A DNA stretch of 64,000 nt from Candidatus Latescibacterota bacterium (GCA_965222075.1 OZ244937.1:5280001-5344000), one strand, 5' to 3'; positions 23,621 through 49,708 are shown, counted from the first letter of the stretch. Numbers and translations are program-made. Notes: a model not told the origin generated them from the sequence alone.

Positions 23621-23670
23621 TTGACAGGATAGGCGAAGCTGTTTATCTTTAGTAGTGAGAGATTGTCACT
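23621..23670 (+). promoter_or_regulatory. Sigma70-like promoter of module 1 with a downstream palindrome
   Basis: TTGACA-N17-TATCTT, then AGTGA-N7-TCACT (23654-23670). Confidence 0.65.
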
Positions 23671-23831
23671 TGTACGAATCATCCCGTCAACACTGAAAGG
23701 GGTGGTGCTTGCCGAGTAGATGGCTAAGGTCGTGAGGCACTGAATCGGAGGTGAAGAGGTGTCTGATCCAGAGCCTCGATCTGACGATAGGGTTCAAAAG
23801 TAGCCGGGGTTTCTCACCAGGAGGTTGTAGT

Positions 23832-26800
23832 ATGAGACGTGTATACTTGTTGTTTGGCATTGTTCTGAGCCTCTGCCTGCTGGCCGGTCCGGTGTGGTCG
23901 CAGACGACCGGTAAGATCACCGGTAAGATGACCGATCCAAACGGTGAGCCTCTGCCGGGCGCCAACGTGGTGATCGAGGGCACCCGCTTTGGGGCGACGA
24001 CCGACGCGGAGGGCATCTACGTGATCCTGGGCGTAGAGCCGGGCTTCTACGAATTGAAGGCTTCGATGGTCGGTTACGAGGCAGTGATCCGCACGAACGT
24101 GCAGGTGGCTGCGTACCGGACCACGGAGGCGGATTTCACGCTGCGGGAGTCGGCGATCGAGGCGGCGGAGATCGTGGTGACGGCGGGGCGGCCGCTCATC
24201 GAGGTGGACCGGACCGGGAGCGAGGCGAAGATCTCGGAGAAGGAGATCGAGCAGCTCCCGATCCTCCGGGAGACGAGGGATCACCTCCACTATGTGGCGG
24301 GGGTGGATCCGGTGAGGAATAGTGGTATTAATGGGGTGATCATCCGGCGCTCAGATAACTTTCGGATTCAGCAGTTACAGGCCTGGACGTTTGACGGCAT
24401 CGAATTGACGCTCCTGGACAACGGGACCTCGGGGTCGCTTCTGTGGGGTCAACAGTACAACAACACGAATGTGACGGCTATCGGCGAGATGGCCGTTGTG
24501 AGAGGGGGACAATCCGCCTCGCAGGCCCAAAATGCCTTCGGTGTGGTGAACATCATCACCCGCGAGGGGACGCGGGTTCTCCACGGCGGCCTCGACGTCC
24601 GGATCGAGCCGTCGGGCAAGCGGCACCACGGGCCGAACGTCTACGACGCCACCCCCGGGCAGCAGGGGGGTGCGAACGGGATGTGGCGGGACAAGCTGAA
24701 GTGGAACGATCCGGACTGGGTGAACGAGGCCGACCCGGTCACCGGGAAGCAGATCCACGTGAAGCAGGACTACGAGGGCGCTGTCGGACACTTAGTGGAG
24801 GGGTGGCTCACCGGGTCGCTGGGTGAGAACGCCACGTTCGTCTTGAGTGCCAGAACCGGCCGGTCCAAGCAGACCTTCCCGGCTCCGCAGAGGACCAGCC
24901 TGCGCCAGCGGCACATCTTCGGGAAGCTCAGTTTCACGCCGTCCGACAACCTCAAGTTGAAGTTCGGCTACCACGACTCGTATGAGCCCACCTGGGGTCG
25001 AGGTGACCAGAGAGGGGTGAACAGCAACCTCTTCCTGGTCCGGGACCGGGGGCATACGGGGTATGAGAGGCGGTGGAAGAACCGGATCGTCTACCTGACG
25101 GCCACCCACACGCTCGGCCCGAAGACGTTCCACGAATTCCAGATCGGGTTCTACGGGACGAACGTCGATACAACAGAGGAGACCGACGGGGCGACGAGTT
25201 CCTGGCGGAGGGACGAGAGCGGGAACTTCAACGTGGATCGGAAGATTCGGAATCTGCAGGTTGACCACAACCGGCGCTACAACTTCCGCTACGCCATCAC
25301 CAGCCAGATGAGCCGGTGGAACCTGGTCAAGACCGGGTTTACCCATCAGATCTTCCACAACGCCAACTGGCATTTACAACAGGGGAGCCCGAGCGGTGCC
25401 ACGATCTGGGTCATGGGCAAGGACGGCGTGCCGGGCACGCGGTATGTCGTCCACCGGTTTGCGTGGTACGCCGAGGACAAGATCGAGTTCCGGGGCATGG
25501 TCGTGAACGTGGGGCTCCGCTACGACGCGATGTGGGGCGGGCCCAGGAAGACGCTGGCGGGGTTTTACAAGGCGACGCCGCAGCATCGGACGTACAAGGC
25601 ATTCCTGACGCGCACGCCCCGGGCGCAGGGGAAGGCGCTGGCCTACTGGTCGCCCCGGGTCGGCGTTTCACACCCGATCACGGCCAGGTCGGCCATCCGG
25701 TTCTCGTTCGGCCGCTACTACAAGCCGACGTCGTTCGGGCAGATATATTCCGAGTCGTGGGCCACCAACGACTTGCTCAACCACCCCAACCTGGACGGTA
25801 CCTGGGGAAATGGGGGCAAAGCGGGCGGGGGCTGGTATCTGGACCATATAAACCGCAGCCCGTCGGGGAGCCCGAATTTGACTGAGTTCGAGGTGTCCGG
25901 GGCCTGGAACTTTTTGAGCAACTACGTCTTAGACATGGCCACCTACTACCGGCGGACGGAGCGCGCGACCGGCGGGAATAACCGCTATTACGTGGACCCG
26001 GTACGGGGACAGGGTCAAGAACGGACGCAGGGGCCTTTTGCCCGTGCGGAGTCCAAGGGCTTCGAAATGGCGGTCTACAAGCCCCTGTCCCAGAACTTCG
26101 CCTTCCGGTTCTCGGTGGACGTGGGCTGGTCTTTCTACTATTTCACGGGCGCCGCCCCGGTCCTCACCCACATCTACCCCGACTCCACCTACATCGCCGG
26201 CCCGAACTACTTCTTAGTGGATACGAACGACGACCCGGTGCTGTTGACGGACACACAGATCCGCGATCTCGGCCACAAGGCCAACGAGACCATCCGGAAG
26301 GTGCGGGAGCAGTTGACCAGGCAGGAGCAGGTCACGGATATCTTGACGCCGCTTAAGCCCCTCTCGGAGTGGCCGGGCATAAGCGGCGAGGATCGGAGTC
26401 GGCCCGAAATCCAGGGCCTCTGGTATTCATCCACCTGGAGATCGCTCAAGAACGCTGCGTGGGGTCCGCCCGCGCCGACCACACAGGCGACGTTCCAGTT
26501 CCTCTGGTCCACCCCGTCCGACTGGGGGCCGGGGCCGACTGTGGGCGGGTCGAAGCTGTTGGGCGGCATCCAGGCGAACCTGGTCTGGCGGTTCAACAGC
26601 GGGGTCAACTTTGCGCATACGCCGCCGGACAACCCGAAGGTGGTCGATGCCTTCCGCTCTGGACCGATGTTCGTCCGGGCGGACCTCAACTTCCAGAAGA
26701 CGTTCGAGGCGGGTACGGGCCGGCCCACGCTCTACGTTGAGGTCTTCAACCTTTTCAATACCTATCTGGACCAAACCCGCAACGCCAACTACGTCCGGTG

Positions 26801-26915
26801 GGGGCTTAAACTGCCGACGCCGAACGATTCGAACTACAACAGGTACGGCGACCCGAGCCCATTTCGGGGCGGCACGCCGCGCTACGTGAACCTCGGGGTG
26901 CGGGTCAGGTTCTGA
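23832..26915 (+). CDS. TonB-dependent receptor 1
   Basis: Signal peptide; GKITG...GEPLPGANVVIEGT N-terminal extension; plug; NVGLRYD; SPRVGVSHPIT; C-terminal LGVRVRF. Confidence 0.9.
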   Translation: MRRVYLLFGIVLSLCLLAGPVWSQTTGKITGKMTDPNGEPLPGANVVIEGTRFGATTDAEGIYVILGVEPGFYELKASMVGYEAVIRTNVQVAAYRTTEADFTLRESAIEAAEIVVTAGRPLIEVDRTGSEAKISEKEIEQLPILRETRDHLHYVAGVDPVRNSGINGVIIRRSDNFRIQQLQAWTFDGIELTLLDNGTSGSLLWGQQYNNTNVTAIGEMAVVRGGQSASQAQNAFGVVNIITREGTRVLHGGLDVRIEPSGKRHHGPNVYDATPGQQGGANGMWRDKLKWNDPDWVNEADPVTGKQIHVKQDYEGAVGHLVEGWLTGSLGENATFVLSARTGRSKQTFPAPQRTSLRQRHIFGKLSFTPSDNLKLKFGYHDSYEPTWGRGDQRGVNSNLFLVRDRGHTGYERRWKNRIVYLTATHTLGPKTFHEFQIGFYGTNVDTTEETDGATSSWRRDESGNFNVDRKIRNLQVDHNRRYNFRYAITSQMSRWNLVKTGFTHQIFHNANWHLQQGSPSGATIWVMGKDGVPGTRYVVHRFAWYAEDKIEFRGMVVNVGLRYDAMWGGPRKTLAGFYKATPQHRTYKAFLTRTPRAQGKALAYWSPRVGVSHPITARSAIRFSFGRYYKPTSFGQIYSESWATNDLLNHPNLDGTWGNGGKAGGGWYLDHINRSPSGSPNLTEFEVSGAWNFLSNYVLDMATYYRRTERATGGNNRYYVDPVRGQGQERTQGPFARAESKGFEMAVYKPLSQNFAFRFSVDVGWSFYYFTGAAPVLTHIYPDSTYIAGPNYFLVDTNDDPVLLTDTQIRDLGHKANETIRKVREQLTRQEQVTDILTPLKPLSEWPGISGEDRSRPEIQGLWYSSTWRSLKNAAWGPPAPTTQATFQFLWSTPSDWGPGPTVGGSKLLGGIQANLVWRFNSGVNFAHTPPDNPKVVDAFRSGPMFVRADLNFQKTFEAGTGRPTLYVEVFNLFNTYLDQTRNANYVRWGLKLPTPNDSNYNRYGDPSPFRGGTPRYVNLGVRVRF

Positions 26916-26919
26916 GCAA

Positions 26920-29513: not shown

Positions 29514-30506
29514 ATGCGGAGCACCTATTCGATCGGATTAGCGGCGGTGTTTGCCGGACTCGTCCTCTCCGCCCCCCCGGCGCTGGCCGACATCGAGGAC
29601 ACGGGCGGCATCTCGAATCAGACGCCGGTGGGCGAGACCTACGTCACCTTCTTAGAGGTGGTGCAGGGGGCGCGCGGTGCCGGGATGGGCGACGCCTTTG
29701 TGGGCGTGGTGGACGACATCAGCGCCGTGTTCTGGAACCCGGCCGGGCTGACGGCCATGCCGAAGAACCGGCTCCAGTTCACGTTCACCAACACGCAGTG
29801 GTTCGTGGATTCGCAGTTCAACTCCGGGGCCGTGGGCGTGAACACCGATTACGGGTCGTTCGCCTTCAGCGTGGTGACGGTCCAACCGCCTGACATGTTG
29901 GAGACAACGATCCTCCAGCCCGCGGGAACGGGACGCACCATAGATTCCGGGAGCTGGGCGGTCGGCGGGGCCTACGCCAAGCAGTTCACGGACCTGTTCT
30001 CCTTAGGCGTCCAGTTCCGGGTGGTCCAGGAAAGGCTGGACACGGGCTTCGACTTCCGGGTGTTTGACATGGCGATCGGGACGAAGTATTACACCGGCTT
30101 CCGGAACCTCCGGGTGGCCATGTCGATACGAAACTTCGGGAGGGATAAGGTCCTGTTTGACAACGGGAGGATCCGGGGCAAGATGCCCGTCATTTTTAGC
30201 GTCGCAACGGCTGCGGAGGTGATCGGAGAGAAGGAGGACCCGGCCTACCTCACAGGCGCCTTCGAGTACCTCTACTCTGTCAGCGTTGAGAGGCGGCTCC
30301 ATTTCGGGGGAGAACTCTGGCTCCGAAACCTCCTGGCGCTGCGAGGGGGGTACAAGTGGAACTACGACGTGCAGGACTTCACGGCCGGGGCTGGGGTAAA
30401 GCTCCAGCGGGGCGTGCACTACATTCGGGTCGATTTCGGCTGGCAAAACATCAAAAACAATCAGTTTGACCCTCCTCTGAGGTTCTCCGTTACGGGGTCG
30501 TTCTGA
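29514..30506 (+). CDS. PorV/PorQ (UPF0164)-family outer-membrane barrel (1)
   Basis: FL....GARGAGMGDAF..V.DD.SAVFWNPAGL; ET.ILQP.GTG; LALRGGY; terminal F. Confidence 0.85.
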   Translation: MRSTYSIGLAAVFAGLVLSAPPALADIEDTGGISNQTPVGETYVTFLEVVQGARGAGMGDAFVGVVDDISAVFWNPAGLTAMPKNRLQFTFTNTQWFVDSQFNSGAVGVNTDYGSFAFSVVTVQPPDMLETTILQPAGTGRTIDSGSWAVGGAYAKQFTDLFSLGVQFRVVQERLDTGFDFRVFDMAIGTKYYTGFRNLRVAMSIRNFGRDKVLFDNGRIRGKMPVIFSVATAAEVIGEKEDPAYLTGAFEYLYSVSVERRLHFGGELWLRNLLALRGGYKWNYDVQDFTAGAGVKLQRGVHYIRVDFGWQNIKNNQFDPPLRFSVTGSF

Positions 30507-30553
30507 CGTTACGGGTGCGGGAGGGGGGAGTGGTACGCTCTGAGATGAACCCG

Positions 30554-30596
30554 ATAGGCGGCTTTTGTTGATTTCGACAGGCCGCCTATTTACTTA
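30554..30596 (+). terminator. Probable intrinsic terminator of module 1
   Basis: ATAGGCGGC...GCCGCCTAT followed by TTACTT. Confidence 0.65.
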
Positions 30597-30660: not shown

Positions 30661-33414
30661 ATGGTCGATCGGATATCGGTTTTGCGATGGACGGTGGGAG
30701 GCGTCCTGTGCGCTGTTGTTTTGGGCCTGTGGACGGGGACAGATCTGGCGGCTGAGCGGTTGTCCCCGGCGGCCATTGATTCGCTTTACAGCCGGGCGAA
30801 ATATCTGGATGCCCGGGGCGTTCGTGCGCTGGCGAGGAGACTGGAAGGCGCCGTACCCTACTACCCCGAGAGTGCGGGCCTGCTGACCCGGATCGGGATG
30901 CTCTATTTGCGGGTGGGAGAGGCCGGCAGCGCGCGCTCGGCGTTTCAGCGGGCGATCGAGAAAGATCCCGGGCGGGCGACTGCACACTGTGGATTGGGGC
31001 GCATCCACCTGGAACTGGAGGACGATCCCAGGGGGGCGCTGCCCCACCTGCAGGCGGCTGTGGCGGCCGATTCCACGTATACCTGGCCCCCCTATTTCCT
31101 GGCACGGGCGCTGGCGCAGATCGGTCAAGGCCACCTGCAAGAAGGAGCGGCCGACAGCGCACGCTCGACGTTCCAACAGGCGGTCGGGTACGATCCGAAG
31201 CTAACTGCTACGCACTTCGGCTTAGGACGCGTCTACTTAGAGCTGGAGGAGGACCCGAAGGGGGCGCTGCCCCACCTGCAGGCGGCTGTGGCGGCCGATT
31301 CCACAAATGCCGACGCGCACTACTTTCTGGCCCGGGCCTACCGGGAGATTGGGCGGCCGGAGGCGAGGAAGGCGGCGGACCGGGCGATCCGGTACGACCC
31401 GATGTATGCGCCGGCTTATCTGCTGCTGGCCCAGTCGTATCAGGAGGAGGACAACCGGCTGGCGATGATGGTCTACTATAAAAAATACCTGGATCTGTTC
31501 CCGAAGGACCAGGAACCGGCGTATGCGTTTGCCCTGGATCTGATGCAGAAGAGGCGGTTCAAGGAGTTGGAAGAGATCACCTCTCTGATGATGGACAGGC
31601 GAGCGCTGCCCCTGCTGGCGCAGGCGCTGATGCGGCGGGGGGACTACGAAGGGGCGGTGCGGGCGTTTGGACACTACGTTGAGACTTTAGATCCGAAGGA
31701 GCAGGAGCTCTACGACGATATTTCGCTGGTGGGGCTGCCCCACGAGGTCGAGGCCTACAAGGCGGCGCCTCCGGAGAAGCGGGAGGCGTTTCTGCGGCAA
31801 TTCTGGCTGCGCCACGATCCGTTCAAGGCCTCCGGAGGGGCCTTGCGCCGTGCAGAGCACTACCGGCGGGTCTGGCACGCCCGGACCTATTACGGGAAGG
31901 TGAAGTCCCCGTGGGATCGCCGCGGAGAGGTCTACACCCGCTACGGGGAGCCCGACTACCGCTCCTCTTCGGAGGATATGAATGCCAAGATCCCCCCCGC
32001 TGTACAGCGCGTACAGGATCAGATGGCCTACGAACTCTACGGCGCGCAGGGGTTGGGAATCACGTTCGTGGGGCCGGTCTTCCCGATTCGGACAGGCGTC
32101 GGAAGCTACAGGGGCCTTCCTGGGGACCTGCGGATAGCAGGGTCCGATCCCGAAGGACCGATATCCGATCCGTTTAGTGCTATCTCTCCCGGGGAACGTC
32201 AATACGAAGCTGATGACATCGCCCCGCAAGAGATCTTCCCCGAGACGGTTGTGAAGCTGGACCCCGAGTTTGTGGTGGGACTGAGCGGGTGGAAGCCGGT
32301 GACCGTCGGAAACAACTGGGCGACAGTGCCCTGGGAGGTGTGGGTGTATGCCGACGTGGGGAAGGGGCTGGAGATCGCTTTTACGGATGAGTACCTTTCC
32401 GGCGTTTACGACTACGCCCCGATCCCCGGTGTGGATGAGCGGGACCTGAAGCGGTTGGATGAAGATCGGTTCGTTGGGGAGACCGCTTACCTGCGCCTGA
32501 TGCAGCGGCTGACGGAGTTGGCCCCCGCGATCCGGGTGGCCAAAGTGGTGCGGGAGGAGCCCGAGCGCTACGACATCTCCGGCTTCGAGCCGCTCGACTT
32601 CTACTACGATGTGGCCTCTTTCCGGGGGCGGAAGGGCCTGACGGAGGTGCAGGTGAACATCGGCATCCCGATCGACCATGTGATCCAGCCGGGGGATACC
32701 GATACCACGGTGGTGGTGGATCGGCGGGTTGCGCTGATCGGCAGCCGGTACACCCATCTGCTGCCGGCGCAGCGAAGCCTGGAGGCGCCGATCTCCGGAC
32801 TCGGCCGGAACCGGGCCCTGCTGGACCGGGTGCTTATGGAGGCTTCTCCGGGGAACTATGAGCTGGCTGTACAGGCGGGGCGCCGGGGCACGCGTCTGCT
32901 CCAATCCTACCTGCAGGACTTGAAGCTCCAGGATTATTCGGGCAAGGACCTGGGACTGAGCGACCTTTTGGTGGCAAAGCGGGTGACCGCAGCAACCGAG
33001 GCCACGTCGGATCCGAGGTTTGTACGGGGGAAGTGGCGCATCACGCCGCTGCCGTCGCACGTCTTCCAGGTTGGGCAGCACGTGTTTGTGTATTCCGAGA
33101 TCTACAACCTGATGCGGGATGAATTCGGGGCCACGCGCTACGAGGTGGCCTACGAGCTCCACGCGACCGGCACGGAAGGGACCGTATTGTCGCCCATCCT
33201 GACGAGGATTCTGGGGCGACAGTCGGAAGCGGCAGTGACGGTCCGCTACGAACAGACGGGCACGGAGGAGTCGGTCTCGGATTATGTGGAGCTGGACATC
33301 GGCAAGGCCGAGTCGAGGCGCTACCGGGTGCGGATGACGGTGAAGGACCTGAACAGCGGGCAGGAGGTGAGCAAGGAAGGGATGTTCTGGGTGGCGACAT
33401 CTGAATCCAGATGA
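30661..33414 (+). CDS. TPR plus GWxTD-like domain protein (1)
   Basis: Signal peptide; TPRs; FWLRHDP...EHYRRVWHA...PWDRRGEVYTRYGEPD; C-terminal beta-sandwich domains. Confidence 0.8.
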   Translation: MVDRISVLRWTVGGVLCAVVLGLWTGTDLAAERLSPAAIDSLYSRAKYLDARGVRALARRLEGAVPYYPESAGLLTRIGMLYLRVGEAGSARSAFQRAIEKDPGRATAHCGLGRIHLELEDDPRGALPHLQAAVAADSTYTWPPYFLARALAQIGQGHLQEGAADSARSTFQQAVGYDPKLTATHFGLGRVYLELEEDPKGALPHLQAAVAADSTNADAHYFLARAYREIGRPEARKAADRAIRYDPMYAPAYLLLAQSYQEEDNRLAMMVYYKKYLDLFPKDQEPAYAFALDLMQKRRFKELEEITSLMMDRRALPLLAQALMRRGDYEGAVRAFGHYVETLDPKEQELYDDISLVGLPHEVEAYKAAPPEKREAFLRQFWLRHDPFKASGGALRRAEHYRRVWHARTYYGKVKSPWDRRGEVYTRYGEPDYRSSSEDMNAKIPPAVQRVQDQMAYELYGAQGLGITFVGPVFPIRTGVGSYRGLPGDLRIAGSDPEGPISDPFSAISPGERQYEADDIAPQEIFPETVVKLDPEFVVGLSGWKPVTVGNNWATVPWEVWVYADVGKGLEIAFTDEYLSGVYDYAPIPGVDERDLKRLDEDRFVGETAYLRLMQRLTELAPAIRVAKVVREEPERYDISGFEPLDFYYDVASFRGRKGLTEVQVNIGIPIDHVIQPGDTDTTVVVDRRVALIGSRYTHLLPAQRSLEAPISGLGRNRALLDRVLMEASPGNYELAVQAGRRGTRLLQSYLQDLKLQDYSGKDLGLSDLLVAKRVTAATEATSDPRFVRGKWRITPLPSHVFQVGQHVFVYSEIYNLMRDEFGATRYEVAYELHATGTEGTVLSPILTRILGRQSEAAVTVRYEQTGTEESVSDYVELDIGKAESRRYRVRMTVKDLNSGQEVSKEGMFWVATSESR

Positions 33415-38805: not shown

Positions 38806-38831
38806 GGGACGCTGTCTGTCGGAGGTTTGCG

Positions 38832-41294
38832 ATGAAAGCTTCAGTCGGATACCGAGATTCGGTTTTCTCCCTCAGGGGTCTCTGCCGGGTTCTGGCGCTG
38901 GTCTCTGTGTCTGCGACTCTAACGGCATCGGCGGCCTTCTCCGATGAGGGCGGAGCGGTTTCGGGTTCCCAGGTCGAGCGGCAACTGGATGAGGGGGAGC
39001 TCGACGAGGCCGTGGGTCTGTTCACCCGCCTGGTCGAGGCCTACCCGGAGGACGCCCACCTGCGGATCCGGCTGGGCTATGCCTACCTCAAGCGGAAGGA
39101 CTTTAAGTTGGCTACAAAGACCTTTAAAGAGGCCAAGAATCTGGATAGGACCCGCCCTGAGGCATACGTGGGGCTTGGGCTGGCCCATGCAGAGCGCCCT
39201 GCCAGAGGCCTGGAGGCCTTCTATAACTTCCGACGTGCCATAGGCGAGGCCAAGCGGGCGACCAGGCTGGACTCGACCTACGGACCCGCGTACCGCCTCC
39301 TCGGCGAGATCTACGAGCGCTATGAGGAGAATCATAAAAAGGCGATTGTATATTTTACGAAGTATGTCGAGCTGGAATCCGATAACCCGGACGGTCTCTA
39401 CTATTTCGGACGCGCCTGCGTACAGGCCAAGGAGTACGAAAAGATCGCCCAATACATCGCTCCCTACGTGAAGGCACATCCTGAGAAATCCCGGCTCCTT
39501 CCCTTAGTGGCGCAGGCGCATTTCTTTCTGGAGCGGTTTGATCTGGCTTTAGAATACTTCGAACACTACCTGCGGACGCTGGACGAGGCGGAGCATCAGC
39601 TTTATACCGATGTTTCCTTAGTTGCTTCCAAAAAGGAACTCGAAGACCTCCAGGCGACGCCCGAAGCGGAACGCGTGGCCTACCTGGAGCAGTTCTGGCT
39701 GAGGCGGGATTCCGATATTCTAACCAAAATCAACGAGCGTATTATCGAGCACTACCGCCGGGTCTGGTTCGCCCGGACTTTTTTTTCCGACAAGGTCCAT
39801 CCCTGGGACAAGCGGGGGGAGGTCTACATCCGGTATGGGGAGCCCGACTACCGCTCCCGGTCCACTGAGAGGCAGTTCGTTCAGAGTCCCGAAGTGGAGG
39901 CCATCCGCAACCGGATGGCGGTGATTATGTATGGGGCCGAGGCCACCTTTCTGACCTTTACGGGTCCTGTGTTTCCGATTCGGTCGCATCGTGATCCATT
40001 TGCTGCTACCCTCTACGACCAGGAGGATGCACTCGTAGATGTACTGGGTCCCGTCAATGAAGAGGGAGACCTCGCGGACGAGTTCGCGGAAACGACGCCG
40101 AACCTCAGTCTCCCTGCCAGCAGTGACGAGGAGGCCATTATTAATAAAGAGGACAGCCGCTTTGACGAAATTGGCAACCCGAAGACGCAGCTCAATTTTG
40201 GCGGGTACGCCCCTGTCACGATGGGCAACGAGTTCGGGACCGTGCCCTGGGAGACCTGGACCTACACGAAGATCGGGGGCGGCATCGAAATCACGTTCAC
40301 AGACGAGATGGGCAGCGGGGTGTTCGCCTTTGCTCCCATCCCTTCACTCGATGTTGACCCGGACCTTCGCAAGGTTTCCCAGGTTACCAGGTTTGCCCCC
40401 AGCACCATCTTCGAAAATGCCGTCGCCCAGGTACCTGACTACTACCGTCCGGGCTTTCTGCATCCCCCCCTCGAGTTCTACTTCGACTTGGCCGACTTCC
40501 GGGGTTCCGACGATCAGACCACGCTGGAGGTCTACTACGGGATTCCGGCTGAACAGATCGAAGTTTTTCAGAAGGCGGACTCGACCTTTGTGGAGGTGCA
40601 GTGCGCGGCGGCTCTGGCGAATGCGGACCATACCTCCGTCTACCGGACCGCATCGAAACACACCTATCGGGTTGTGGACCGTTTTACACAGGCCAGGGGG
40701 ACGTTCCAGCCCGAGCTCCTTAAGGTCCAGGCGCCTCCCGGCAGATACGAACTCCAGGTTCAGCTCAAGGACCTGACCTCGGGCCGCACCGGGATCTACA
40801 GGCAGTCCGTAGAGGTGAAGGCGTATCCTGAAGACGTGCTTCGGATCAGCGACATCCAGCTGGCCGCTGCGATCGAAGACACGGGGTCGATCGACAGGTT
40901 CAGGAAGGGGGATATCTGGGTTGTGCCGATGCCGACCCGCAACTACAGGGGATCCCAGAAGGTTTACTTCTACTGCGAGATCTACAATCTCAATAGGGAC
41001 ATCTTCGGTCGGACTCGCTACAGCATAAAGTACCTCGTCAGATCTGTTTCAAAGTCCACGATCGGGTTCGGTGAGGCGGCTGCAGCAAGACTCCGTTCTC
41101 TGCTCAGGAGCGGTAAACCTCAGGTTTCGATCGCCTACGAACAGACCGGGTCGGAGACGACCGTGCAGGAATACGTCGAGATTGATCTGACTAAGCTCAA
41201 GCGCGGGGCTAAAGTGTTTGAGCTCAAGATCAAGGATCTTGTCACCGGCAAGACCGCGACCCGCGAGATTCGTTTCCGGTACGGAGAAGGTTGA
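38832..41294 (+). CDS. TPR plus GWxTD-like domain protein (2)
   Basis: Signal peptide; TPRs; FWLRRD...EHYRRVWFA...PWDKRGEVYIRYGEPD; paralog of 30661-33414. Confidence 0.8.
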   Translation: MKASVGYRDSVFSLRGLCRVLALVSVSATLTASAAFSDEGGAVSGSQVERQLDEGELDEAVGLFTRLVEAYPEDAHLRIRLGYAYLKRKDFKLATKTFKEAKNLDRTRPEAYVGLGLAHAERPARGLEAFYNFRRAIGEAKRATRLDSTYGPAYRLLGEIYERYEENHKKAIVYFTKYVELESDNPDGLYYFGRACVQAKEYEKIAQYIAPYVKAHPEKSRLLPLVAQAHFFLERFDLALEYFEHYLRTLDEAEHQLYTDVSLVASKKELEDLQATPEAERVAYLEQFWLRRDSDILTKINERIIEHYRRVWFARTFFSDKVHPWDKRGEVYIRYGEPDYRSRSTERQFVQSPEVEAIRNRMAVIMYGAEATFLTFTGPVFPIRSHRDPFAATLYDQEDALVDVLGPVNEEGDLADEFAETTPNLSLPASSDEEAIINKEDSRFDEIGNPKTQLNFGGYAPVTMGNEFGTVPWETWTYTKIGGGIEITFTDEMGSGVFAFAPIPSLDVDPDLRKVSQVTRFAPSTIFENAVAQVPDYYRPGFLHPPLEFYFDLADFRGSDDQTTLEVYYGIPAEQIEVFQKADSTFVEVQCAAALANADHTSVYRTASKHTYRVVDRFTQARGTFQPELLKVQAPPGRYELQVQLKDLTSGRTGIYRQSVEVKAYPEDVLRISDIQLAAAIEDTGSIDRFRKGDIWVVPMPTRNYRGSQKVYFYCEIYNLNRDIFGRTRYSIKYLVRSVSKSTIGFGEAAAARLRSLLRSGKPQVSIAYEQTGSETTVQEYVEIDLTKLKRGAKVFELKIKDLVTGKTATREIRFRYGEG

Positions 41295-41532: not shown

Positions 41533-42585
41533 ATGAAACGGCAGAGGCGAGTCACGATTAAAGACATCGCGCGGTATTTGGGGATTTCGTCTTCGACGGT
41601 GTCGCGGGCGCTGAGCGGTGGTCTGGAAGACCGGATCAGCCTGGCCACACAGAAGAAGGTCCTGAAAGCTGCCTCGGCGCTGGAGTACTACCCGAACTTA
41701 ATGGCGCGCGCGATAGTCAAGCGGAAGAGCGGCGTTCTGGGCCTGCTTACCTGTGAGATCTTCTATCCTGGCCAGTCCAGCTACGTCCAGGACATAGTGA
41801 TGGAGGCGCACCGGCACGGCTATCAGGTTACGCTGGGGGTAGCCACCTCTTCCCGCTCTGAAGATGTGCTGGACGACCTGCAGGTGCAGGTCCGGCAGAT
41901 GATCTCAATGAATGTGGATGGACTGTTGATCCACATGCGGGGGATTGCCGGTGAAGAGAGGCAAATCGTCGATTCGGTTGGGGATGTGGTGCCTGCGGTG
42001 GCCTTTAGCCACCCCATAGAAGGGATTAGCAACGTGGTCCTGGACCGGGTTGCGGGCGCGTACGCGGCCGCGGAACATCTGATCCGGTTGGGACATCAAC
42101 GCATCGGGTTTGTGGGGGTGGATTGGGCGCGGGCGCGGATGTCCGCGCGGCAGGGTTACCTCCGCGCCGTACAGGAGTACGGCCTGACGCCGGAGGAGGT
42201 GTTTGTGGATGGCGAGACCCTGGAGGAGGGCTACCGGCTGGGTGTACAGATGGGGCGCGCGTCCGACCGGGCAACGGCCCTCATCTACTGCAGCGGCGTC
42301 TTGCTCGGGATCGGGATCTGCCGGGGTCTCCAGGAGGTCGGGGTTCGGGTTCCGGAGGAGGTCGCGGTCGTGGGGGGCGACACCAGCGGGCTCGGGGCCT
42401 ATTGCACCCCTCCTATGACGGCGGTCACTCCGTCTGTGGAGGAGGTTTGTCGGTATGCGATCCGACTGCTTATCGATCAGTTAAACGGGGAACCTGAGGT
42501 GAGGCGCGTGACGATTCAGCCGCGCCTCATCGTCCGGAAGTCCTGTGGGGCGGATCTGAGGCTGCAATCGGCTGTTTCAGTTTGA
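41533..42585 (+). CDS. LacI-family transcriptional regulator
   Basis: VTIKDIARYLGISSSTVSRAL HTH; YYPNLMAR; RVPEEVAVVG; LIVRKSC. Confidence 0.95.
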   Translation: MKRQRRVTIKDIARYLGISSSTVSRALSGGLEDRISLATQKKVLKAASALEYYPNLMARAIVKRKSGVLGLLTCEIFYPGQSSYVQDIVMEAHRHGYQVTLGVATSSRSEDVLDDLQVQVRQMISMNVDGLLIHMRGIAGEERQIVDSVGDVVPAVAFSHPIEGISNVVLDRVAGAYAAAEHLIRLGHQRIGFVGVDWARARMSARQGYLRAVQEYGLTPEEVFVDGETLEEGYRLGVQMGRASDRATALIYCSGVLLGIGICRGLQEVGVRVPEEVAVVGGDTSGLGAYCTPPMTAVTPSVEEVCRYAIRLLIDQLNGEPEVRRVTIQPRLIVRKSCGADLRLQSAVSV

Positions 42586-42606
42586 CTATGGCCTGATCGG
42601 CGGCCC

Positions 42607-42704: not shown

Positions 42705-42710
42705 GGTGCA

Positions 42711-43028: not shown

Positions 43029-46000
43029 ATGATGAGCAGGTTAAAGATAGGTATAGGCGCTGTCCTTGCGCTCGGGGTGGTTTTGGCGATGGTCAGCACG
43101 GCGACCGCCGGCTCGGTGGGAAAGGTGACCGGCAGGGTGACGGACGAGAGGGGAGGGCCGCTGCCGGGGGCCAACGTGGTGCTGGAGGGGACGCAGCGGG
43201 GCGCGACGACAGATACGGACGGGTCCTATGTGATCCTGTCGATTGATCCGGGGGTCTACTCGGCGACGGCCTCGATGGTGGGCTACCACCTGGCGGCCAA
43301 GGAGCGGGTGATCGTGCAGGTGGATCTCACCACGACGGTGGATTTCCGGCTTCGGGAAGAGGCGCTGAAGATGGAGGAGATGGTGGTGGTGGCGGAGCGT
43401 CCGGCTGTGGAGCCGGACAAGACGGAGAGCCGGTATGTGGTGAGCTTCCAGGATATCCAACGGGTACCGATTTTAAGGAATGTTGGGGAGTTTATGGAGA
43501 TGGAGGCGGGGATGGCGGTGGACGGCAGCGGACAGATCCGCTCCGGCATGGTCCTGGACAACGCATACTACGTGGATGGGGTTCGGCTGGTAAACAACGA
43601 TGTAAGGGGAATGACGGGCACACCCGCGGCCCGCCGTCCCGTCTCCTGGTACGCCCCGACGGCCGAGGTCCAGTGGTCGGGAGTCAACGTCAAGGCGGTG
43701 CAGGAACTCTCTCTCATAACGGGCGGCATGAACGCCGAGTACGGGAACGCGTCCGCTGGCGTGGTGCAGATGGTGACCCGGGATGGTGGGAACACGTACC
43801 ACGGCGAGGTTGAGTATCGGCTCACCCCGGCGGGCAAGAAGCACTGGGGAAAGAACGTGTATGATTCGCCCGAACACCGGGGCCGTGTGCGGTGGGACGA
43901 TCCGGAGTGGGTGTCGGAGGTGGATCCTGTGACGGGCCGTCTGGTTCACCAGCGGAAAAACTACACGGACTGGCGGGGGCACTACTTCGACGGTCACTTT
44001 AGCGGGCCGATCACCCGATCGGCGTCCTTCTTCGGCAGCGCCCGGCATAACCGGGATGCGGCCCCTTTTCCCAATACGTGGGATGAGCATCGGCCGTTCA
44101 ACTTCCGGACCACGGCGAAGCTGACTGTGTCGGCCACTCCGAATGTGAAGGCGCGGTTCGGTTGGGTCTTCGACCGTTGGAAAACCTTTGAACTCGCCGC
44201 TTATCGCAACATCCTCTGGGGGGCGGGACTGACGCGGGAAACAGAAAATAACGTGAAGAGGGGCCCCGGGCGGGACATCTTCTTGCCAGCAGGGTCGTCC
44301 GCCGGACAGAGCATCAAGGCGGAGAACGTGCTCTACGCTGTTCTGACCCACACGATCGGTCCCAGGACCTTCTACGAGCTGAGGGTGTCGAATTACCAGA
44401 GCAAGCAGGACACCAGCGGAGTGTCGGACAACACCTCAGCAGAGATCAGGACCGATAAGGCTAACTGGTTCTACCTGGGTTACGATAATGCGTCGAACTA
44501 TACCGTCGGGGAGCAGAATCGCCTCGGCCTCAAGTTCGACCTGTCCAGTCAGGTAACCAAGGGGCATTTCGTCAAGGCCGGGATCGATTTCACCCGGTAC
44601 GACAACTACTATGTCACCCAGACCAGTTCACCCGGCAATAAGACGAGGGCAATCGTCTACCTGGGCCCCGAACCGGGTGCAGGGGTCAAGCCCAAGCAGT
44701 TCGCAGTCTACGCCCAGGACAAAATGGAGTTTGAGGGGCTGGTCATAAACGCCGGCATGCGCTTCGACCGCTTCTGGGGTCCGCCCATACCGATAGCTAC
44801 CGGCTACAGGCAAAAGCTGTATAATTCTCTGCATCGCTTTCTTCAGGCACCCCGTTTCCCCATGGAGCCGATCGTCAACTGGAGTCCGAGGCTGGGGATC
44901 TCGCATCCGATCACGGACAGATCGAAGATGCACTTTTCCTACGGCGTCTTCAACCAGGTGCCGAGTTTCCAGGGGATGTTCCAGGACAATTGGCGGTCCG
45001 CCGGTCCTCCAACGGAGGTGAAGTGGAGCAACTACACTGGAAATTCCTACCCCGGAGACGCGTCCGTTACGAGGCCGATATGGCAGAACACCCCGCGGAT
45101 GATCAATTTTGAGGTGGGCGGGGAGTGGAACTTTGTCAGCGATTATACCGCCTCGATGGCTACCTTCATCAAGAGCGGCACATTTCAAGTGACCTTTGGC
45201 GGTGGAGCCTGGTTCGACCCAAAGACTGCGGGGTTGACGTATGGGACCGGCTACCCAACCAATTCGCACGCCCATGACGTCCGGGGCTACGAGTTCAGCC
45301 TGAGGAAGGACTTCAGCCACCAATTCTCGTTCAGGGCTGCCTTCAATATGGATTGGATGGAATTTTCTTACGGAGGGAATGATGGCGCCTGGAACGGCAG
45401 TACGCTCATCCCCGACTCCACCTACGTAGCCAGCGGCAATTACCACACCAGTTGGGAGATCGTCGGTGGGGTTGAGCGGCCGGTGAAGCTTACGGACGCG
45501 GAGATCAGGGAGATCGGGGCTCAGGCCAACGTGAACATAGCAAAGGTCTATGCGAATCCCCAGGCCTATGCCGGCGGTTGGGCGGCAAGTGATATTGTTA
45601 AGCTGTGGGAGCGGCCCTGGCTTACGGATGAGGAGAGGTCGAAGGTACAGGGCCTGCATATGCTCTACCTATCCTGGCGGGGCACTTCCCAGCGTACGCG
45701 TGGGAGGGGGCCTCGCAAACAGGCCAGCCTGCAGGCGTTCTTCTCGTCCCCGACGGACTTCGGACCGGGTCCGAAGATGGCCGGAGGCACGTTCTTAGGC
45801 GGCGTGAACGTGAACCTGATTTACCGGCTTTACTTCGGAACCGAGTTCAGGTACACCACTATCGAAGGGCTCCAGGACAAGTCGAGGGGGCCCGTGCACA
45901 CCACGGTTGACCTTAACATACAAAAGCGTCTTCACCTGGGTCGTGTGAGCGCCGACCTGTTCTTTGAGGCGTTCAACCTTTTCCAACAGAGGGACGCGCA

Positions 46001-46169
46001 GGTCCAACTGTATGGTTCGACGACAACGGGGCCATACATGTGGTGGGGTCTGGGGTCGGCGCCGGGTCCCGACGATGCGAACTATCTGAAGTATGGGGAT
46101 CCCCGGGATCGAGAACGCTACAGGGGAGATCCTCGGGTCACGCACCTGGGGATCAGGCTGAGGTTCTAA
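43029..46169 (+). CDS. TonB-dependent receptor 2
   Basis: Signal peptide; LPGANVVLEGT; plug GGMNAEYGNASAGVV; NAGMRFD; C-terminal LGIRLRF; paralog of receptor 1. Confidence 0.9.
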   Translation: MMSRLKIGIGAVLALGVVLAMVSTATAGSVGKVTGRVTDERGGPLPGANVVLEGTQRGATTDTDGSYVILSIDPGVYSATASMVGYHLAAKERVIVQVDLTTTVDFRLREEALKMEEMVVVAERPAVEPDKTESRYVVSFQDIQRVPILRNVGEFMEMEAGMAVDGSGQIRSGMVLDNAYYVDGVRLVNNDVRGMTGTPAARRPVSWYAPTAEVQWSGVNVKAVQELSLITGGMNAEYGNASAGVVQMVTRDGGNTYHGEVEYRLTPAGKKHWGKNVYDSPEHRGRVRWDDPEWVSEVDPVTGRLVHQRKNYTDWRGHYFDGHFSGPITRSASFFGSARHNRDAAPFPNTWDEHRPFNFRTTAKLTVSATPNVKARFGWVFDRWKTFELAAYRNILWGAGLTRETENNVKRGPGRDIFLPAGSSAGQSIKAENVLYAVLTHTIGPRTFYELRVSNYQSKQDTSGVSDNTSAEIRTDKANWFYLGYDNASNYTVGEQNRLGLKFDLSSQVTKGHFVKAGIDFTRYDNYYVTQTSSPGNKTRAIVYLGPEPGAGVKPKQFAVYAQDKMEFEGLVINAGMRFDRFWGPPIPIATGYRQKLYNSLHRFLQAPRFPMEPIVNWSPRLGISHPITDRSKMHFSYGVFNQVPSFQGMFQDNWRSAGPPTEVKWSNYTGNSYPGDASVTRPIWQNTPRMINFEVGGEWNFVSDYTASMATFIKSGTFQVTFGGGAWFDPKTAGLTYGTGYPTNSHAHDVRGYEFSLRKDFSHQFSFRAAFNMDWMEFSYGGNDGAWNGSTLIPDSTYVASGNYHTSWEIVGGVERPVKLTDAEIREIGAQANVNIAKVYANPQAYAGGWAASDIVKLWERPWLTDEERSKVQGLHMLYLSWRGTSQRTRGRGPRKQASLQAFFSSPTDFGPGPKMAGGTFLGGVNVNLIYRLYFGTEFRYTTIEGLQDKSRGPVHTTVDLNIQKRLHLGRVSADLFFEAFNLFQQRDAQVQLYGSTTTGPYMWWGLGSAPGPDDANYLKYGDPRDRERYRGDPRVTHLGIRLRF

Positions 46170-46262: not shown

Positions 46263-48563
46263 GTGATGAAAAAGCTTTACACATTCGGGACGGTTACCGT
46301 CCTTCTCGGCCTGCTGCTGTGGTACTCGGTCCCTGTGAGGTCACAGACGCTCGAGATCGCGGATAAGCAGCGATTCCAGACCCGTGCAAAGGTCTGGGAT
46401 ATATTCTGGAACAACGGCATCCAAGGGGTGTGGGAGCAAAATCGCATTAGTTTCCACCGGCACGTGGGCATGCAGTACCCCGGCCTCTTCACGGTCGACT
46501 ATGCGGAGGACTTCGTAAACTACTGGGGTGTGCGGTTTTGGAGAGGATTTGGATCTCAGACGAGGGCCTGGTACACCCAATTCACGGCCCTTATGCCGGG
46601 CTTCCACACCTTCGTTTCGACGGTGGTGGACGGGGATTACCACGTTTCGGAGTCGAAGGCGGCTCACGCGTCGGATGATATTACGCTAATGGCCTACGAT
46701 CCGTCGGTGGGGCCGGAGGCGAACATCGGCTATGCGAACCGTTCTCCCCTGGGTCCTGTTATGTCCAACTGGTGGCCAGGCCAGCCTCTGCCGGGAAGTA
46801 AAGAGGTGGTCGAGATCCACAACTTCCGGTACGGCCAGTATATGGAGCCGGACAAGGACATGTTTGCGGAAGATATCCTCATCATACACTACACCACAAA
46901 GCGGGGGATCACGGTAACCAAGAAGGTCTACGCGTGGAGCTACTTAGACTACGACGATTTTGAGATTATGGAGTATACGTTCGAGAACACCGGGGACTCC
47001 GACGGGGATGGGGTCGCGGATCTGAACGGTGGGGCGGGACTGCAGCTCAACGATACCTTCCTTGTCTTCGGGACCCGCTTCTTTATGTCGCAGGCCGGGC
47101 ACGTGTGGCGGAACTACAGTGGCTGGTATCGAACTGTGACTACTGAGGTGCTGGATGACGTGTACAAGTTTACGGAGGCGGACAACTACGACGGTCCGGC
47201 GTCCGGACAGGGGCTGAAGATGTGGTATTCGTTCGACGGAGACAACCCGCTCTTTCCGGGGGACGACCTGGGTCAGCCTTTCAGCTTTGGGAAATCCATT
47301 TGGCAAGAGATAGGTCCATTCCGGAGTGAGGGCGAGATCACGGCCTACCAATATGCGGGCGTTGCGCCGATCGCCTACACACCCGGGGCCGCCAACGATC
47401 CGGCCACGTGGACCTACGACACCGGAGGTGACGCGAGCTTTGTGGCGCCCAGAGTGGCCGACCAACCCCATACCGTGAGGTGGTGGCCATTTCGTACCCG
47501 GTACGACTACGACGAGCCGGACTCAAAGACGAATACCTGGGAGGAGATGTACAACCAGTTCGCCGGTCCCGCGCCTTCGATCAAGGCCAATTCGATGGAG
47601 CCCGGGGCGCTGCACGGCTCGTTTGCCTACGGCCCCTACGACCTGGCGCCCGGAGACAAGGTCAGGATCGTGTTGGCTTTGGTGGCGGCAGCTCCAGTTG
47701 AAGAGAATTTCCTGGCGTGGGCGAAACTGGGGAAGCAGGAGGAGATGCGCACGGACAAGGCATTCAACAACCTGGTCAAGCACCTCAACAAGGCCAAAGA
47801 GGCATTCCAGTGGGGTTACGACCTCCCCGATCCTCCGCCTGACGTGGGTGTGACTGTGGACGTCACGCCCGATGCGAACAACCTGTTGATCTGGAGCGCC
47901 GAGTCGGACGACACGACCGATCCGGACTATTCGGACGGTACGGGGAAGGACGTGGCGGGCTACCGGGTGTATCGGTCGGATTTCAATCTGTACGATTGGA
48001 AGCTTATCCAAGAAATTCCCGTGAAGGATCCGAAGTATCTTAAAGGGGACAAATACGAGTACGCCGACCCGAAGTCCCAGGCCGGATTTGAGTATCTTTA
48101 CAACGTCCGCAGCTACGACACGGGTCACGCCGATTGGAACGGGACCGGAATCGCCATTCCCTCTTTAGAGAGCGGGAACGGCTCCCCCGAGCAGTGGGCA
48201 AACGGTGTCCAAACCAATAGTCCCTTCGCGCCTGTCACCTCTGAGGCGGACCGATTGCAGAGGAAGGTGGTCGTGGTCCCCAACCCGTACAAAATCGACG
48301 GCGCCCATTCCTACCCGGGGGGAGGGGCTATCCGGTTTACCAATATCCCGCGCAAGTGCGAGATCAGGATCTTCACGATGGCCGGGGAGCTTTTTGCGAC
48401 GATCCCACACGACAGTCCGACGCAGGGCGAGGTGACCTGGACCCAGCTCCCCGATACCTGGATTGAGACCGCTCCTGCCGGGATCTATTTCTTCATAGTC
48501 GAATCGCGGGTGCCAGGGAGCGAGGGGCAGGTGCAGCGAGGCACTTTTGCAGTCGTCAAGTGA
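46263..48563 (+). CDS. Secreted protein with an FN3-like domain and T9SS-CTD-like tail (2)
   Basis: SPI signal (VRS-Q); NWWPG, DYDDF, FENTGDSDGD and YGPYDLAPGDKV shared with copy 1; tail VVPNPY...GTFAVVK. Confidence 0.75.
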   Translation: MMKKLYTFGTVTVLLGLLLWYSVPVRSQTLEIADKQRFQTRAKVWDIFWNNGIQGVWEQNRISFHRHVGMQYPGLFTVDYAEDFVNYWGVRFWRGFGSQTRAWYTQFTALMPGFHTFVSTVVDGDYHVSESKAAHASDDITLMAYDPSVGPEANIGYANRSPLGPVMSNWWPGQPLPGSKEVVEIHNFRYGQYMEPDKDMFAEDILIIHYTTKRGITVTKKVYAWSYLDYDDFEIMEYTFENTGDSDGDGVADLNGGAGLQLNDTFLVFGTRFFMSQAGHVWRNYSGWYRTVTTEVLDDVYKFTEADNYDGPASGQGLKMWYSFDGDNPLFPGDDLGQPFSFGKSIWQEIGPFRSEGEITAYQYAGVAPIAYTPGAANDPATWTYDTGGDASFVAPRVADQPHTVRWWPFRTRYDYDEPDSKTNTWEEMYNQFAGPAPSIKANSMEPGALHGSFAYGPYDLAPGDKVRIVLALVAAAPVEENFLAWAKLGKQEEMRTDKAFNNLVKHLNKAKEAFQWGYDLPDPPPDVGVTVDVTPDANNLLIWSAESDDTTDPDYSDGTGKDVAGYRVYRSDFNLYDWKLIQEIPVKDPKYLKGDKYEYADPKSQAGFEYLYNVRSYDTGHADWNGTGIAIPSLESGNGSPEQWANGVQTNSPFAPVTSEADRLQRKVVVVPNPYKIDGAHSYPGGGAIRFTNIPRKCEIRIFTMAGELFATIPHDSPTQGEVTWTQLPDTWIETAPAGIYFFIVESRVPGSEGQVQRGTFAVVK

Positions 48564-48653
48564 GCCTGCACAGGGCCATTCTGCGAGTGCATAGAGGCAT
48601 CCGGAAGACCTTCCGCGATGTTCCGAATCGGATTGGAGAGAGGAGATAGGGCC

Positions 48654-49610
48654 ATGAAAAGATTATTTTGGACAGGCGTGACGGTAATCGCGATCTGCGC
48701 GTGGCTTTTGCCGCAGTATGCCCAGGGGGCATCCCCTCAGAAGCGGCTTGGACGGGTGGTGTTCCCTGTGTTGAAGATAGACCAAGGAGCGCGCAGTGCA
48801 GGCATGGGCGGGGCATATGTGTCGGTCGCCAACGACATTAACTCCATTTTTGTGAATTCAGCGGGACTGGCCTACATTGAGAATGGAGAGTATACGGTCT
48901 CCTACACTCGATGGCTGGTGGATTCTCAGTTTTACTCCGGCGCGGTCGCCTATAACATCGGGAATGGGGTTCTGGGGGTGAGCGTGCTGGCCTTTACGCC
49001 GGAGAAGGTCGAAGAGACGACGATCTTCCAGCCACAGGGAACGGAGAGAATGTTGAGCTTGGGGGACCTCAGCATCGGTTTGGCCTACGCCAAGAAGATG
49101 ACGGACAGGCTCACGTTCGGTGTCCAGTTCCGTTGGACGCAGGAGACGCTGGACCTGGATAGGCTAAGCGCCTATGATGTGAGCATGGGGACCTTTTTTG
49201 ACACGGGATTCAGAAGCCTGCGGTTGGCCATGGCGATCAAGAACCTGGGAAGCAAGCAGAAGATTTTCGAACTCAATTACCACATGCCAACCACCTTCAC
49301 TTTTGGGTTCGCTATGGAGGTGTTTGGGGTGAAGGGCGAGCCGGCGTATTTGACGGTTACGGGAGAGAACTTCTTGGCCCCGGATTATGCGTCTCCACAG
49401 TATCGGCTGGGCGGAGAATTGTGGTTTCAGGATACACTGGCGCTTCGGGGGGGACGTAAGATCAACTTCGATGCGGAGACTTACAGCCTCGGAGTGGGGA
49501 TCAAATTCCGGCCGGTGGAGGGGAAGGAGATGCGTGCGGACTTCGCCTACACCAGTTTCGGCAATACGTTCAATGCGCCCTTGCGGTTCTCTCTGAGCGG
49601 ATCGTTCTGA
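48654..49610 (+). CDS. PorV/PorQ (UPF0164)-family outer-membrane barrel (2)
   Basis: GARSAGMGGAY...NSAGL; ETTIFQPQGT; PLRFSLSGSF. Confidence 0.85.
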   Translation: MKRLFWTGVTVIAICAWLLPQYAQGASPQKRLGRVVFPVLKIDQGARSAGMGGAYVSVANDINSIFVNSAGLAYIENGEYTVSYTRWLVDSQFYSGAVAYNIGNGVLGVSVLAFTPEKVEETTIFQPQGTERMLSLGDLSIGLAYAKKMTDRLTFGVQFRWTQETLDLDRLSAYDVSMGTFFDTGFRSLRLAMAIKNLGSKQKIFELNYHMPTTFTFGFAMEVFGVKGEPAYLTVTGENFLAPDYASPQYRLGGELWFQDTLALRGGRKINFDAETYSLGVGIKFRPVEGKEMRADFAYTSFGNTFNAPLRFSLSGSF

Positions 49611-49640
49611 ACAGCAGAGGGTTGTGTGTAGAGCCAGGTT

Positions 49641-49708
49641 AAGCCGTTTCTGGGAGCCATTCTTCGTTGTGAAGAGTACACAAGGAGGCTCTCAGAACGG
49701 CTTTTTGT
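49641..49708 (+). terminator. Probable intrinsic terminator of module 2
   Basis: AAGCCGTTTCTGGGAGCC...GGCTCTCAGAACGGCTT followed by TTTGTT. Confidence 0.7.

Follow-up and report, generated by a model that had tools for sequence, protein, structure and literature searches.

The 64,000-nucleotide stretch of Candidatus Latescibacterota DNA analysed here, hereafter the window (GCA_965222075.1 OZ244937.1:5280001-5344000), contains two three-gene loci of identical layout, hereafter triads 1 and 2. Each triad encodes, in this order, a TonB-dependent transporter (TBDR), a middle protein (MID) and a PorV-like barrel. In window coordinates, the features of the two triads are as follows:

23621..23649, + strand: sigma-70-like promoter match upstream of triad 1 (TTGACA-17-TATCTT, 10/12; a consensus match only)
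23832..26915, + strand: TBDR1, TonB-dependent transporter with CarboxypepD_reg domain, TonB-box-like motif, plug and barrel
[quoted passage not shown]
29514..30506, + strand: PorV/PorQ-family barrel 1 (NF033709, 148.7 bits)
30553..30590, + strand: terminator-like hairpin downstream of triad 1 (-22.9 kcal/mol, z -4.6), with UUUACUUAUGUU after it
43029..46169, + strand: TBDR2, TonB-dependent transporter (AlphaFold2 (AF2) model and Foldseek)
46263..48563, + strand: MID2, middle protein, 766 residues (AF2 model)
48654..49610, + strand: PorV/PorQ-family barrel 2 (NF033709, 160.6 bits)
49641..49703, + strand: terminator-like hairpin downstream of triad 2 (-34.5 kcal/mol, z -5.0), with UUUUUGUU after it

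Both triads lie on the + strand, and their products pair up in BLASTP, with identities of 33% between the transporters (E 3e-162), 35% between MID1 and MID2 (E 1e-130) and 42% between the barrels (E 3e-72). This resemblance is well past chance, and by sequence comparison the triads of the window are true paralogues. An original prediction, made from the DNA alone, had described two diverged copies of one gene order, each closed by a terminator, and both parts of that description stand. RNA folding gives a hairpin with a U-rich tail at each triad end, and none of 200 shuffles of either hairpin folds equally well; a simple consensus terminator scan found nothing at either end, because the loops are longer than its limit. 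Barrel 1 was set to start at MRSTYS..., 11 nt past the MID1 stop, and the starts of the PorV-like open reading frames (ORFs) are most likely 29514 and 48654 rather than the earliest in-frame start codons.

The window pair belongs to a much larger set. Searches with tblastn and ORF extraction reveal 20 co-linear triads in the 5.36-Mb single-contig genome, so that the word 'duplicated' in the original prediction fits the two paralogous triads of the window and is too low for the genome. One triad has a short transporter ORF (907 residues) and another a short middle ORF (539 residues), both probably frameshifts, and three more distant PorV-like genes exist beyond the 20 triad barrels. Trees of the 20 transporters, 20 middle proteins and 20 barrels (IQ-TREE, quick search, LG+G4) have well-supported clades in common, with Robinson–Foulds distances of 14, 18 and 8 (maximum 34) against a minimum of 28 across 1,000 label shuffles, and Mantel r values of 0.89, 0.88 and 0.94, where the shuffles do not exceed 0.45. 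The congruence of the three genes, which had been proposed as a check, holds among the 20 triads of this genome, and the triads therefore multiplied as whole units without swapping parts.

Beyond this genome, a profile search of 1.84 billion proteins with the middle protein returned 313 cluster representatives at E<=1e-30 and 2,198 at E<=1e-10, with proteins of 650–750 residues among the distant relatives. A scan of species-representative genomes confirmed 267 relatives, and the best 80 of these 267 are the 80 loci referred to below. Most of the 80 are titled Candidatus Latescibacterota metagenome-assembled genomes, and a few are titled Gemmatimonadota/Gemmatimonas, Marinimicrobia/Neomarinimicrobiota, KSB1 or Cytophagia. 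The order transporter, middle protein, barrel is preserved in 76 of the 80; three of the four exceptions (L022, L058 and L095) end at contig edges, and the fourth, L091, has a DUF6785 gene where the barrel would be. The 80 loci are not 80 independent cases, because many come from closely related genomes. Within the phylum of the window, 33 of 81 sampled genomes carry the middle-protein family at E<=1e-30 (at most 13 candidates were scored per genome, making copy numbers in this sample lower bounds), including all 5 sampled members of the window's own family and 22 of the 24 from another family of its order, with none among the 15 from a third family of its class.

Two triads of the genome, T09 and T10 (G000:C1:2083300-2127400; loci L109 and L110), stem from a very recent duplication, with a distance of ~0.01 in the barrel tree. 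Each is accompanied by a 1,149-residue sigma-54 activator with Reg_prop/Y_Y_Y sensor domains, like the hybrid sensors of Bacteroides, and the T09 transporter ORF is the one of 907 residues.

By predicted fold, the first gene encodes a TonB-dependent transporter that lies outside every curated subfamily and is not a SusC. In Pfam, TBDR1 matches CarboxypepD_reg with 68 bits, and TBDR1 and TBDR2 match Plug with 20.9 and 22.1 bits, just below the cut-off of 23.9. The AF2 model of TBDR2 (predicted local distance difference test score (pLDDT) 75.9, predicted template modelling score (pTM) 0.74) places a plug within a beta-barrel, as in TonB-dependent transporters, where the barrel has 22 strands, and its top Foldseek matches are PirA (5fr8_A, E 3.3e-25) and SusC (8aa4_A, E 3.2e-22), with many other TonB-dependent transporters. 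The SusC/RagA model TIGR04056 gives 58.4 and 53.0 bits against a cut-off of 368.25, with only the N-terminal part of the model covered. A sequence search of the PDB with TBDR2 found no solved transporter barrel, its sole match running through the CarboxypepD_reg domain. Between the N-terminal domain and the plug lies a conserved motif, ..E.VVVAERP.. or ..EIVVTAGRP.., that is like a TonB box.

The second gene encodes a protein that no Pfam or NCBIfam model covers in full. Direct reading of MID1 and MID2 shows a hydrophobic N-terminal signal sequence without a conforming lipobox, and both proteins end in VVPNPY...G.Y..VES...G.F.V(K/R), in agreement with the signal, missing lipobox and VPNPY tail that had been noted for this gene. 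In the AF2 model of MID2 (pLDDT 84.5, pTM 0.86), residues ~31–520 form a galactose-mutarotase-like beta-supersandwich, a fold associated with carbohydrates, followed on the C-terminal side by an FN3 domain and then a seven-strand C-terminal sandwich. In a VIA-align search this region matched 2cqs_A (Z 17.8, root-mean-square deviation 3.7, 266 aligned) and 1lf6_A (Z 17.6), as well as the GH174 fucanase 9k1g_B (Z 13.4) and aldose epimerases (Z 12–13). The best matches are non-catalytic N-terminal domains of GH94, GH15, GH65 and GH116 enzymes, whose (alpha/alpha)6 catalytic domain has no counterpart in the MID2 model. Foldseek alone had returned only low TM-scores (<=0.24) to GH94 enzymes and FN3 pairs, and it was VIA-align that settled the fold. 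The alignment of middle proteins also contains a conserved acidic stretch, DYDDF..E..FENTGD.DGDG, which may be a calcium site or an active site.

The tail of the middle protein was compared with models of known T9SS sorting domains, scanning the last 110 residues of each of the 20 family members singly:

Pfam CHU_C PF13585 (type B sorting domain): 16/20 tails, best E 5.1e-7
NCBIfam PorZ C-terminal segment, positions 664–752 of 757: 15/20 tails, best E 3.3e-7
TIGR04183 (type A): 8/20 tails, best E 2.9e-4
PF18962 (type A): 8/20 tails, best E 0.013

A further type B model, TIGR04131, matches 1 of the 20, and none of the 16 above-cut-off type A domains of the genome lies inside a triad gene. From these matches and misses the tail is probably a divergent class of T9SS sorting domain; among the models compared, it is nearest to sorting domains known as retained rather than cleaved, above all that of PorZ. 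The T9SS C-terminal domain (CTD) has been described as a seven-strand Ig-like beta-sandwich (in the part available of PMC11285876), and residues 670–764 of the MID2 model likewise form seven strands in such a sandwich. In Foldseek the MID2 model matches PorZ (5m11) with E 4.9e-5; a profile of the tail found no match at E<=1 among PDB sequences.

The third gene encodes a barrel of the PorV/PorQ family. Barrels 1 and 2 score 148.7 and 160.6 bits with the family model NF033709, above its cut-off of 90, and reach neither the PorV equivalog NF033710 (48.8 and 60.9 bits against 250) nor the PorQ equivalog NF033711 (50.2 and 61.1 bits against 220). A profile of the 20 triad barrels matches the solved Flavobacterium johnsoniae PorV (6h3i_F) with E 6.3e-21. 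When residues 26–318 of barrel 2 and the MID2 tail were modelled together, with a 20-row alignment per chain, the complex scored 0.87, 0.88 and 0.89 in three runs, against 0.00 for the best of three controls, and the runs have at least 87% of contacts in common with a partner pLDDT of at least 75. In calibration, 116 of 157 solved complexes and 2 of 215 mismatched pairs reach the mark, a guide that is only rough for runs with alignments of our own. In the predicted interface, contacts come from the conserved VVPNPY stretch, the IRIF..AGD and G.Y.F strands, and the final strand. The model supports a fit between the tail family and the barrel family, stability and cognate specificity of binding being beyond it, and lends support to tethering of the middle protein by the barrel. 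Of the three-part importer that had been proposed, this is the part that stands: the tail is placed on a PorV-family barrel, with silent controls.

A translocon for such a tail is encoded in the same genome, as a 2,057-residue ORF that matches the SprA/Sov model TIGR04189 with 630.8 bits against a cut-off of 200. A separate PorV-like protein of 401 residues (genome positions 3195774-3196979; 163.1 bits with the PorV model) adjoins a type A cargo and, by its sequence, is the best candidate for a housekeeping PorV. A PorU-like protein of 1,961 residues has a C25-type region (212.8 bits against a cut-off of 420), matches to GldK/PorK are restricted to the FGE-sulfatase domain (best 129.9 bits against 350), and a search of the genome for PorZ gave only tail-level and weak propeller-like matches. 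The T9SS of this genome appears to be reduced, consisting of SprA, one housekeeping PorV-like protein and a PorU-like protein. SusD is missing: the SusD_RagB model PF07980, positive in the Bacteroides thetaiotaomicron control, has no match in this 97.6%-complete genome, and of five further triad carriers, labelled as other phyla, three lack any match and the remaining two show a single weak one each. With regulators, membrane proteins and catabolic enzymes adjoining the triads, the original characterization as SusD-free and akin to a polysaccharide utilization locus (PUL) is borne out.

From the folds, family memberships, synteny and predicted tail–barrel interface computed here, we propose that each triad is a self-contained, SusD-independent outer-membrane capture and import module in which the barrel holds the T9SS-exported middle protein near the transporter, a reading to which we assign a probability of roughly 60%. 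Sec would export the middle protein first, and the type IX translocon (SprA) would then take over via the C-terminal sorting domain of this protein, whose tail would stay in the PorV/PorQ-family barrel encoded next to it instead of driving release. Retained at the surface in this way, it would owe to the barrel what SusD and the surface glycan-binding proteins of Bacteroidota owe to a lipid anchor. On its FN3 stalk, the beta-supersandwich would bind the substrate close to the transporter, perhaps as a lid, the likeliest ligand being a glycan or glycoconjugate, and import would follow through the TBDR, the first gene of the triad. Fragments would then pass the inner membrane, probably via DUF6785/DUF6784 proteins, and be degraded by neighbouring enzymes under LacI, GntR or sigma-54 regulators. 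A far-reaching form of this proposal is possible and, in our judgement, doubtful: that the three proteins form one stable machine, in which a T9SS-loaded barrel replaces the lipid anchor and sets a binding protein over its own transporter, as a third architecture beside lone receptors and SusCD; that this is the main uptake system of Latescibacterota and of several SusD-less phyla within the Fibrobacteres–Chlorobi–Bacteroidetes (FCB) group; that T9SS there chiefly assembles importers; and that DUF6785/DUF6784 proteins are the matching inner-membrane permeases, likewise undescribed.

Several observations weigh against the capture module. Contact of the transporter with the other two proteins is something that we infer, and it is the part of the three-part importer that lies outside the complex model. 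That model cannot separate the cognate barrel from the housekeeping PorV, and its score may mirror likeness to known structures, because solved PorV-containing complexes exist. Congruent trees are compatible with contact between the proteins and no proof of it, as duplication of linked genes alone yields them. The tails miss the curated cut-offs for type A domains, and the MID2 tail has no Pfam match at E<=1. A check for T9SS core genes had been suggested and was answered in part: SprA is present, and PorK, PorL and PorM went undetected, the genome giving no match to GldL or GldM, for which the controls were silent too so that absence is not shown, and GldN was not searched for. A supersandwich fold is no proof of sugar binding, and the middle protein may be catalytic. 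Nor need the substrates be glycans, because many of the neighbouring genes encode enzymes that are not classical carbohydrate-active ones (PhyH, homocysteine S-methyltransferase-like, creatininase, hydantoinase).

The same evidence can be read in other ways. The barrel could be a dedicated secretion shuttle and nothing more, taking the middle protein from the SprA translocon, as PorV acts as a shuttle in Porphyromonas (described in the part available of PMC5562754); the 1,961-residue PorU-like protein with its C25-type region would suit this, and the complex model is equally consistent with transient as with stable binding. We consider it unlikely, since one barrel per cargo, as in 76 of 80 loci, would be expensive given a housekeeping PorV, the tails match the retained PorZ tail (15/20) more often than type A domains (8/20), and no PorZ homologue was found in the genome beyond tail-level matches. 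Little credence also goes to a surface enzyme of an undescribed family, barrel-anchored or secreted, that would cleave or modify glycans into fragments for the transporter, with no lid involved. Invariant or near-invariant acidic residues do cluster in the supersandwich, for example in DYDDF..E..FENTGD.DGDG, galactose-mutarotase-like domains are catalytic in the aldose epimerases, and the GH174 fucanase is among the fold matches; yet the fold is closest to N-terminal domains, themselves non-catalytic, of GH94, GH15 and GH65 enzymes, no family model matched, and the acidic motif may as well be a calcium site.

Very improbable, in our view, is that the three genes are co-transcribed with separate functions and form no machine, for example with the transporter exporting or inserting the middle protein, or with the barrel as a FadL-like channel for hydrophobic compounds. 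Oar-type receptors of Myxococcus have an export or insertion role, an N-terminal CarboxypepD_reg domain and a length of ~1,050 residues, and the triad transporter shares that domain and that length; PorV itself falls within the FadL fold, and there is a weak Toluene_X match of 18.2 bits. Set against this are barrels that exceed the PorV/PorQ family cut-off, a T9SS-like tail, a confident predicted tail–barrel interface and a catabolic context under LacI and GntR regulators.

As with SusC/SusD (RagA/RagB) and the utilisomes of Bacteroidota, the transporter gene directly precedes the gene of a partner that is, in the triads presumably, exposed at the surface, regulators and catabolic enzymes lie in the locus, many diverged copies occur per genome, and the transporter is built from a CarboxypepD_reg-type domain, a TonB-box-like motif, a plug and a barrel in the same order. 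Unlike those systems, the triads occur in a genome without a SusD homologue, their transporter fails the SusC/RagA model, the partner is an all-beta non-lipoprotein whereas SusD is a helical, TPR-like lid, and an obligatory third gene adds a PorV/PorQ-type barrel. The barrel and its cargo have closer relatives in the attachment complex of the Porphyromonas gingivalis T9SS, which contains PorU:PorV and PorQ:PorZ sub-complexes (PMC5562754, in part), and a T9SS review describes, in its available text, how PorQ retains the tail of PorZ and PorV that of PorU (PMC10202324). In both pairs the cargo keeps its CTD, and a barrel of the same family as that of the triads fixes it to the cell surface (PMC5562754, PMC10202324, parts of both), and 15 of 20 triad tails match the PorZ tail. 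In contrast to PorZ and PorU, the triad cargo is probably a substrate-binding protein of a nutrient locus and no part of a secretion system, and the genome has 20 private cargo–barrel pairs, each with a transporter gene and with barrels below the PorV and PorQ equivalog cut-offs.

A private barrel next to its cargo is also known from type B CTD proteins such as SprB, which is encoded with the PorP/SprF-like barrel SprF in F. johnsoniae, and 16 of 20 triad tails match the type B model CHU_C. There the CTD probably escapes cleavage, and an anchoring role has been proposed for the barrel (PMC10202324, text available in part). The same part of the review describes type B cargoes whose PorP/SprF barrels are encoded nearby, and it suggests that tails are shielded from cleavage by cognate PorV-like barrels (PMC10202324). 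The triads differ in that their barrel belongs to the PorV/PorQ family, not to PorP/SprF, and in that they sit in uptake loci and not with gliding adhesins.

Our full-text literature search found no account of a module of transporter, CTD protein and PorV-like barrel, in line with the statement of the original prediction that no functional description was known. In the available part of the 2015 genome paper on Latescibacteria, sugars are assumed to enter through porins, and TonB-dependent uptake is assumed for B12 and iron only (PMC4454575), and the terms PorV, T9SS and type IX do not occur in the part available of a 2026 review of glycoside transporters (PMC13543919). Genome surveys overlook the uptake systems of SusD-less phyla because a SusC/SusD pair is what defines a PUL. 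In this genome, a small module of three genes, in 20 copies, appears to take the place of SusC/SusD, and it looks like an undescribed, SusD-less way to build nutrient-capture machines. If tethering is real, the triad would be a marker for substrate-utilization loci in uncultured FCB bacteria and a non-lipoprotein route to displaying binding proteins, and type IX secretion and PorV/PorQ barrels would have a wider role, extending past Bacteroidota.

The genes between and downstream of the two triads are the following:

30661..33414, + strand: TPR and GWxTD protein with signal sequence, 917 residues (TPR families; TIGR04514 at 46.2 bits, cut-off 28)
33613..35643, + strand: DUF6785/DUF6784 multi-pass membrane protein (PF20581, 350 bits)
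36142..38430, + strand: PcRGLX-like/GH127-like enzyme, 762 residues, without signal peptide (PF21345, PF07944, PF19501)
38796..41294, + strand: second TPR and GWxTD protein, 832 residues (TIGR04514, 56.5 bits)
41533..42585, + strand: LacI-family regulator upstream of triad 2 (PF00356, PF13377)
49858..55730, + strand: cupin/JmjC-like protein, PhyH dioxygenase, creatininase-family amidohydrolase, second DUF6785/DUF6784 protein and 2-hydroxyacid dehydrogenase (Pfam)

Pfam and NCBIfam matches confirm the TPR-GWxTD proteins, DUF6785 membrane proteins, LacI regulator and catabolic enzymes that had been read from the sequence near the triads, and candidates emerge for two large families without known function, DUF6785/DUF6784 and TPR-GWxTD. 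The genome encodes 43 DUF6785/DUF6784 paralogues, those in the window having at least 10 hydrophobic segments each; DUF6785 genes occur in the mapped neighbourhood of 13 of 19 triads, 40 of the 80 related loci contain them too, and the full-text literature search found no paper naming the family, which is a candidate for an undescribed family of inner-membrane permeases. TPR-GWxTD proteins have 20 paralogues in the genome, and secreted ones of 830–1,300 residues adjoin triads in 16 of the 80 loci. Of 109 ORFs that neighbour the other 18 triads of the genome, 104 were compared with Pfam, the five left out being opposite-strand ORFs that overlap triad genes. Recurrent families are PhyH, homocysteine S-methyltransferase-like, sulfatase, heparinase II/III, polysaccharide deacetylase, GFO/IDH/MocA and DegT, and the regulators include LacI, GntR and sigma-54 activators with Reg_prop/Y_Y_Y sensor domains. 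Judging by this mix of enzymes, the substrates may be glycans with sulfate or other modifications, together with small nitrogenous compounds, rather than plant polysaccharides.

Two neighbouring genes of the window have close paralogues outside it. The second DUF6785 gene (52729-54702) has a 78% paralogue at genome positions 5347095-5349047, and the PcRGLX/GH127-like enzyme (36142-38430) has an 89%-identical paralogue at 5353206-5355473, ~9 kb past the window end; together they suggest a segmental duplication. Elsewhere, a small OMP_b-brl gene (238–280 residues) lies immediately upstream of the transporter in four triads:

L116:5600-6442: OMP_b-brl gene
L117:5647-6363: OMP_b-brl gene
L118:5584-6303: OMP_b-brl gene
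L108:13309-14028: OMP_b-brl gene

In two other triads this position is taken by a protein of ~260 residues bearing a canonical type A sorting domain (genome positions 7192-7437 and 134703-134930).

Contigs from RNA libraries give a weak hint of transcription of the triad 2 region, with carry-over of DNA possible. In four runs of one study, labelled 'sponge metagenome', they cover the LacI gene, the 3′ two-thirds of TBDR2, MID2 and barrel 2, and over 41400-50800 the contigs at >=99% identity number 19/19, 16/16, 17/18 and 17/17 by run. One contig (48335-48676) bridges the junction between MID2 and barrel 2, and among those four runs no RNA-library contig lies over 42970-44225. Six DNA-type runs from three other studies contain 99–100% of the sampled words of 41400-50800.

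Just upstream of triad 1, the stretch ~14000-22000 has a lower GC content, 0.49–0.55 against ~0.62, and encodes a truncated phage-integrase-family ORF (21031-21453, - strand), several methyltransferases and GNAT, NUDIX, HAD and 2'-5' RNA ligase-like proteins; it is possibly the remnant of an integrated element. Further upstream, at 4191-8726, a 1,511-residue ORF carries MacB-like periplasmic and FtsX permease domains in its C-terminal third alone, an unusually long fusion.

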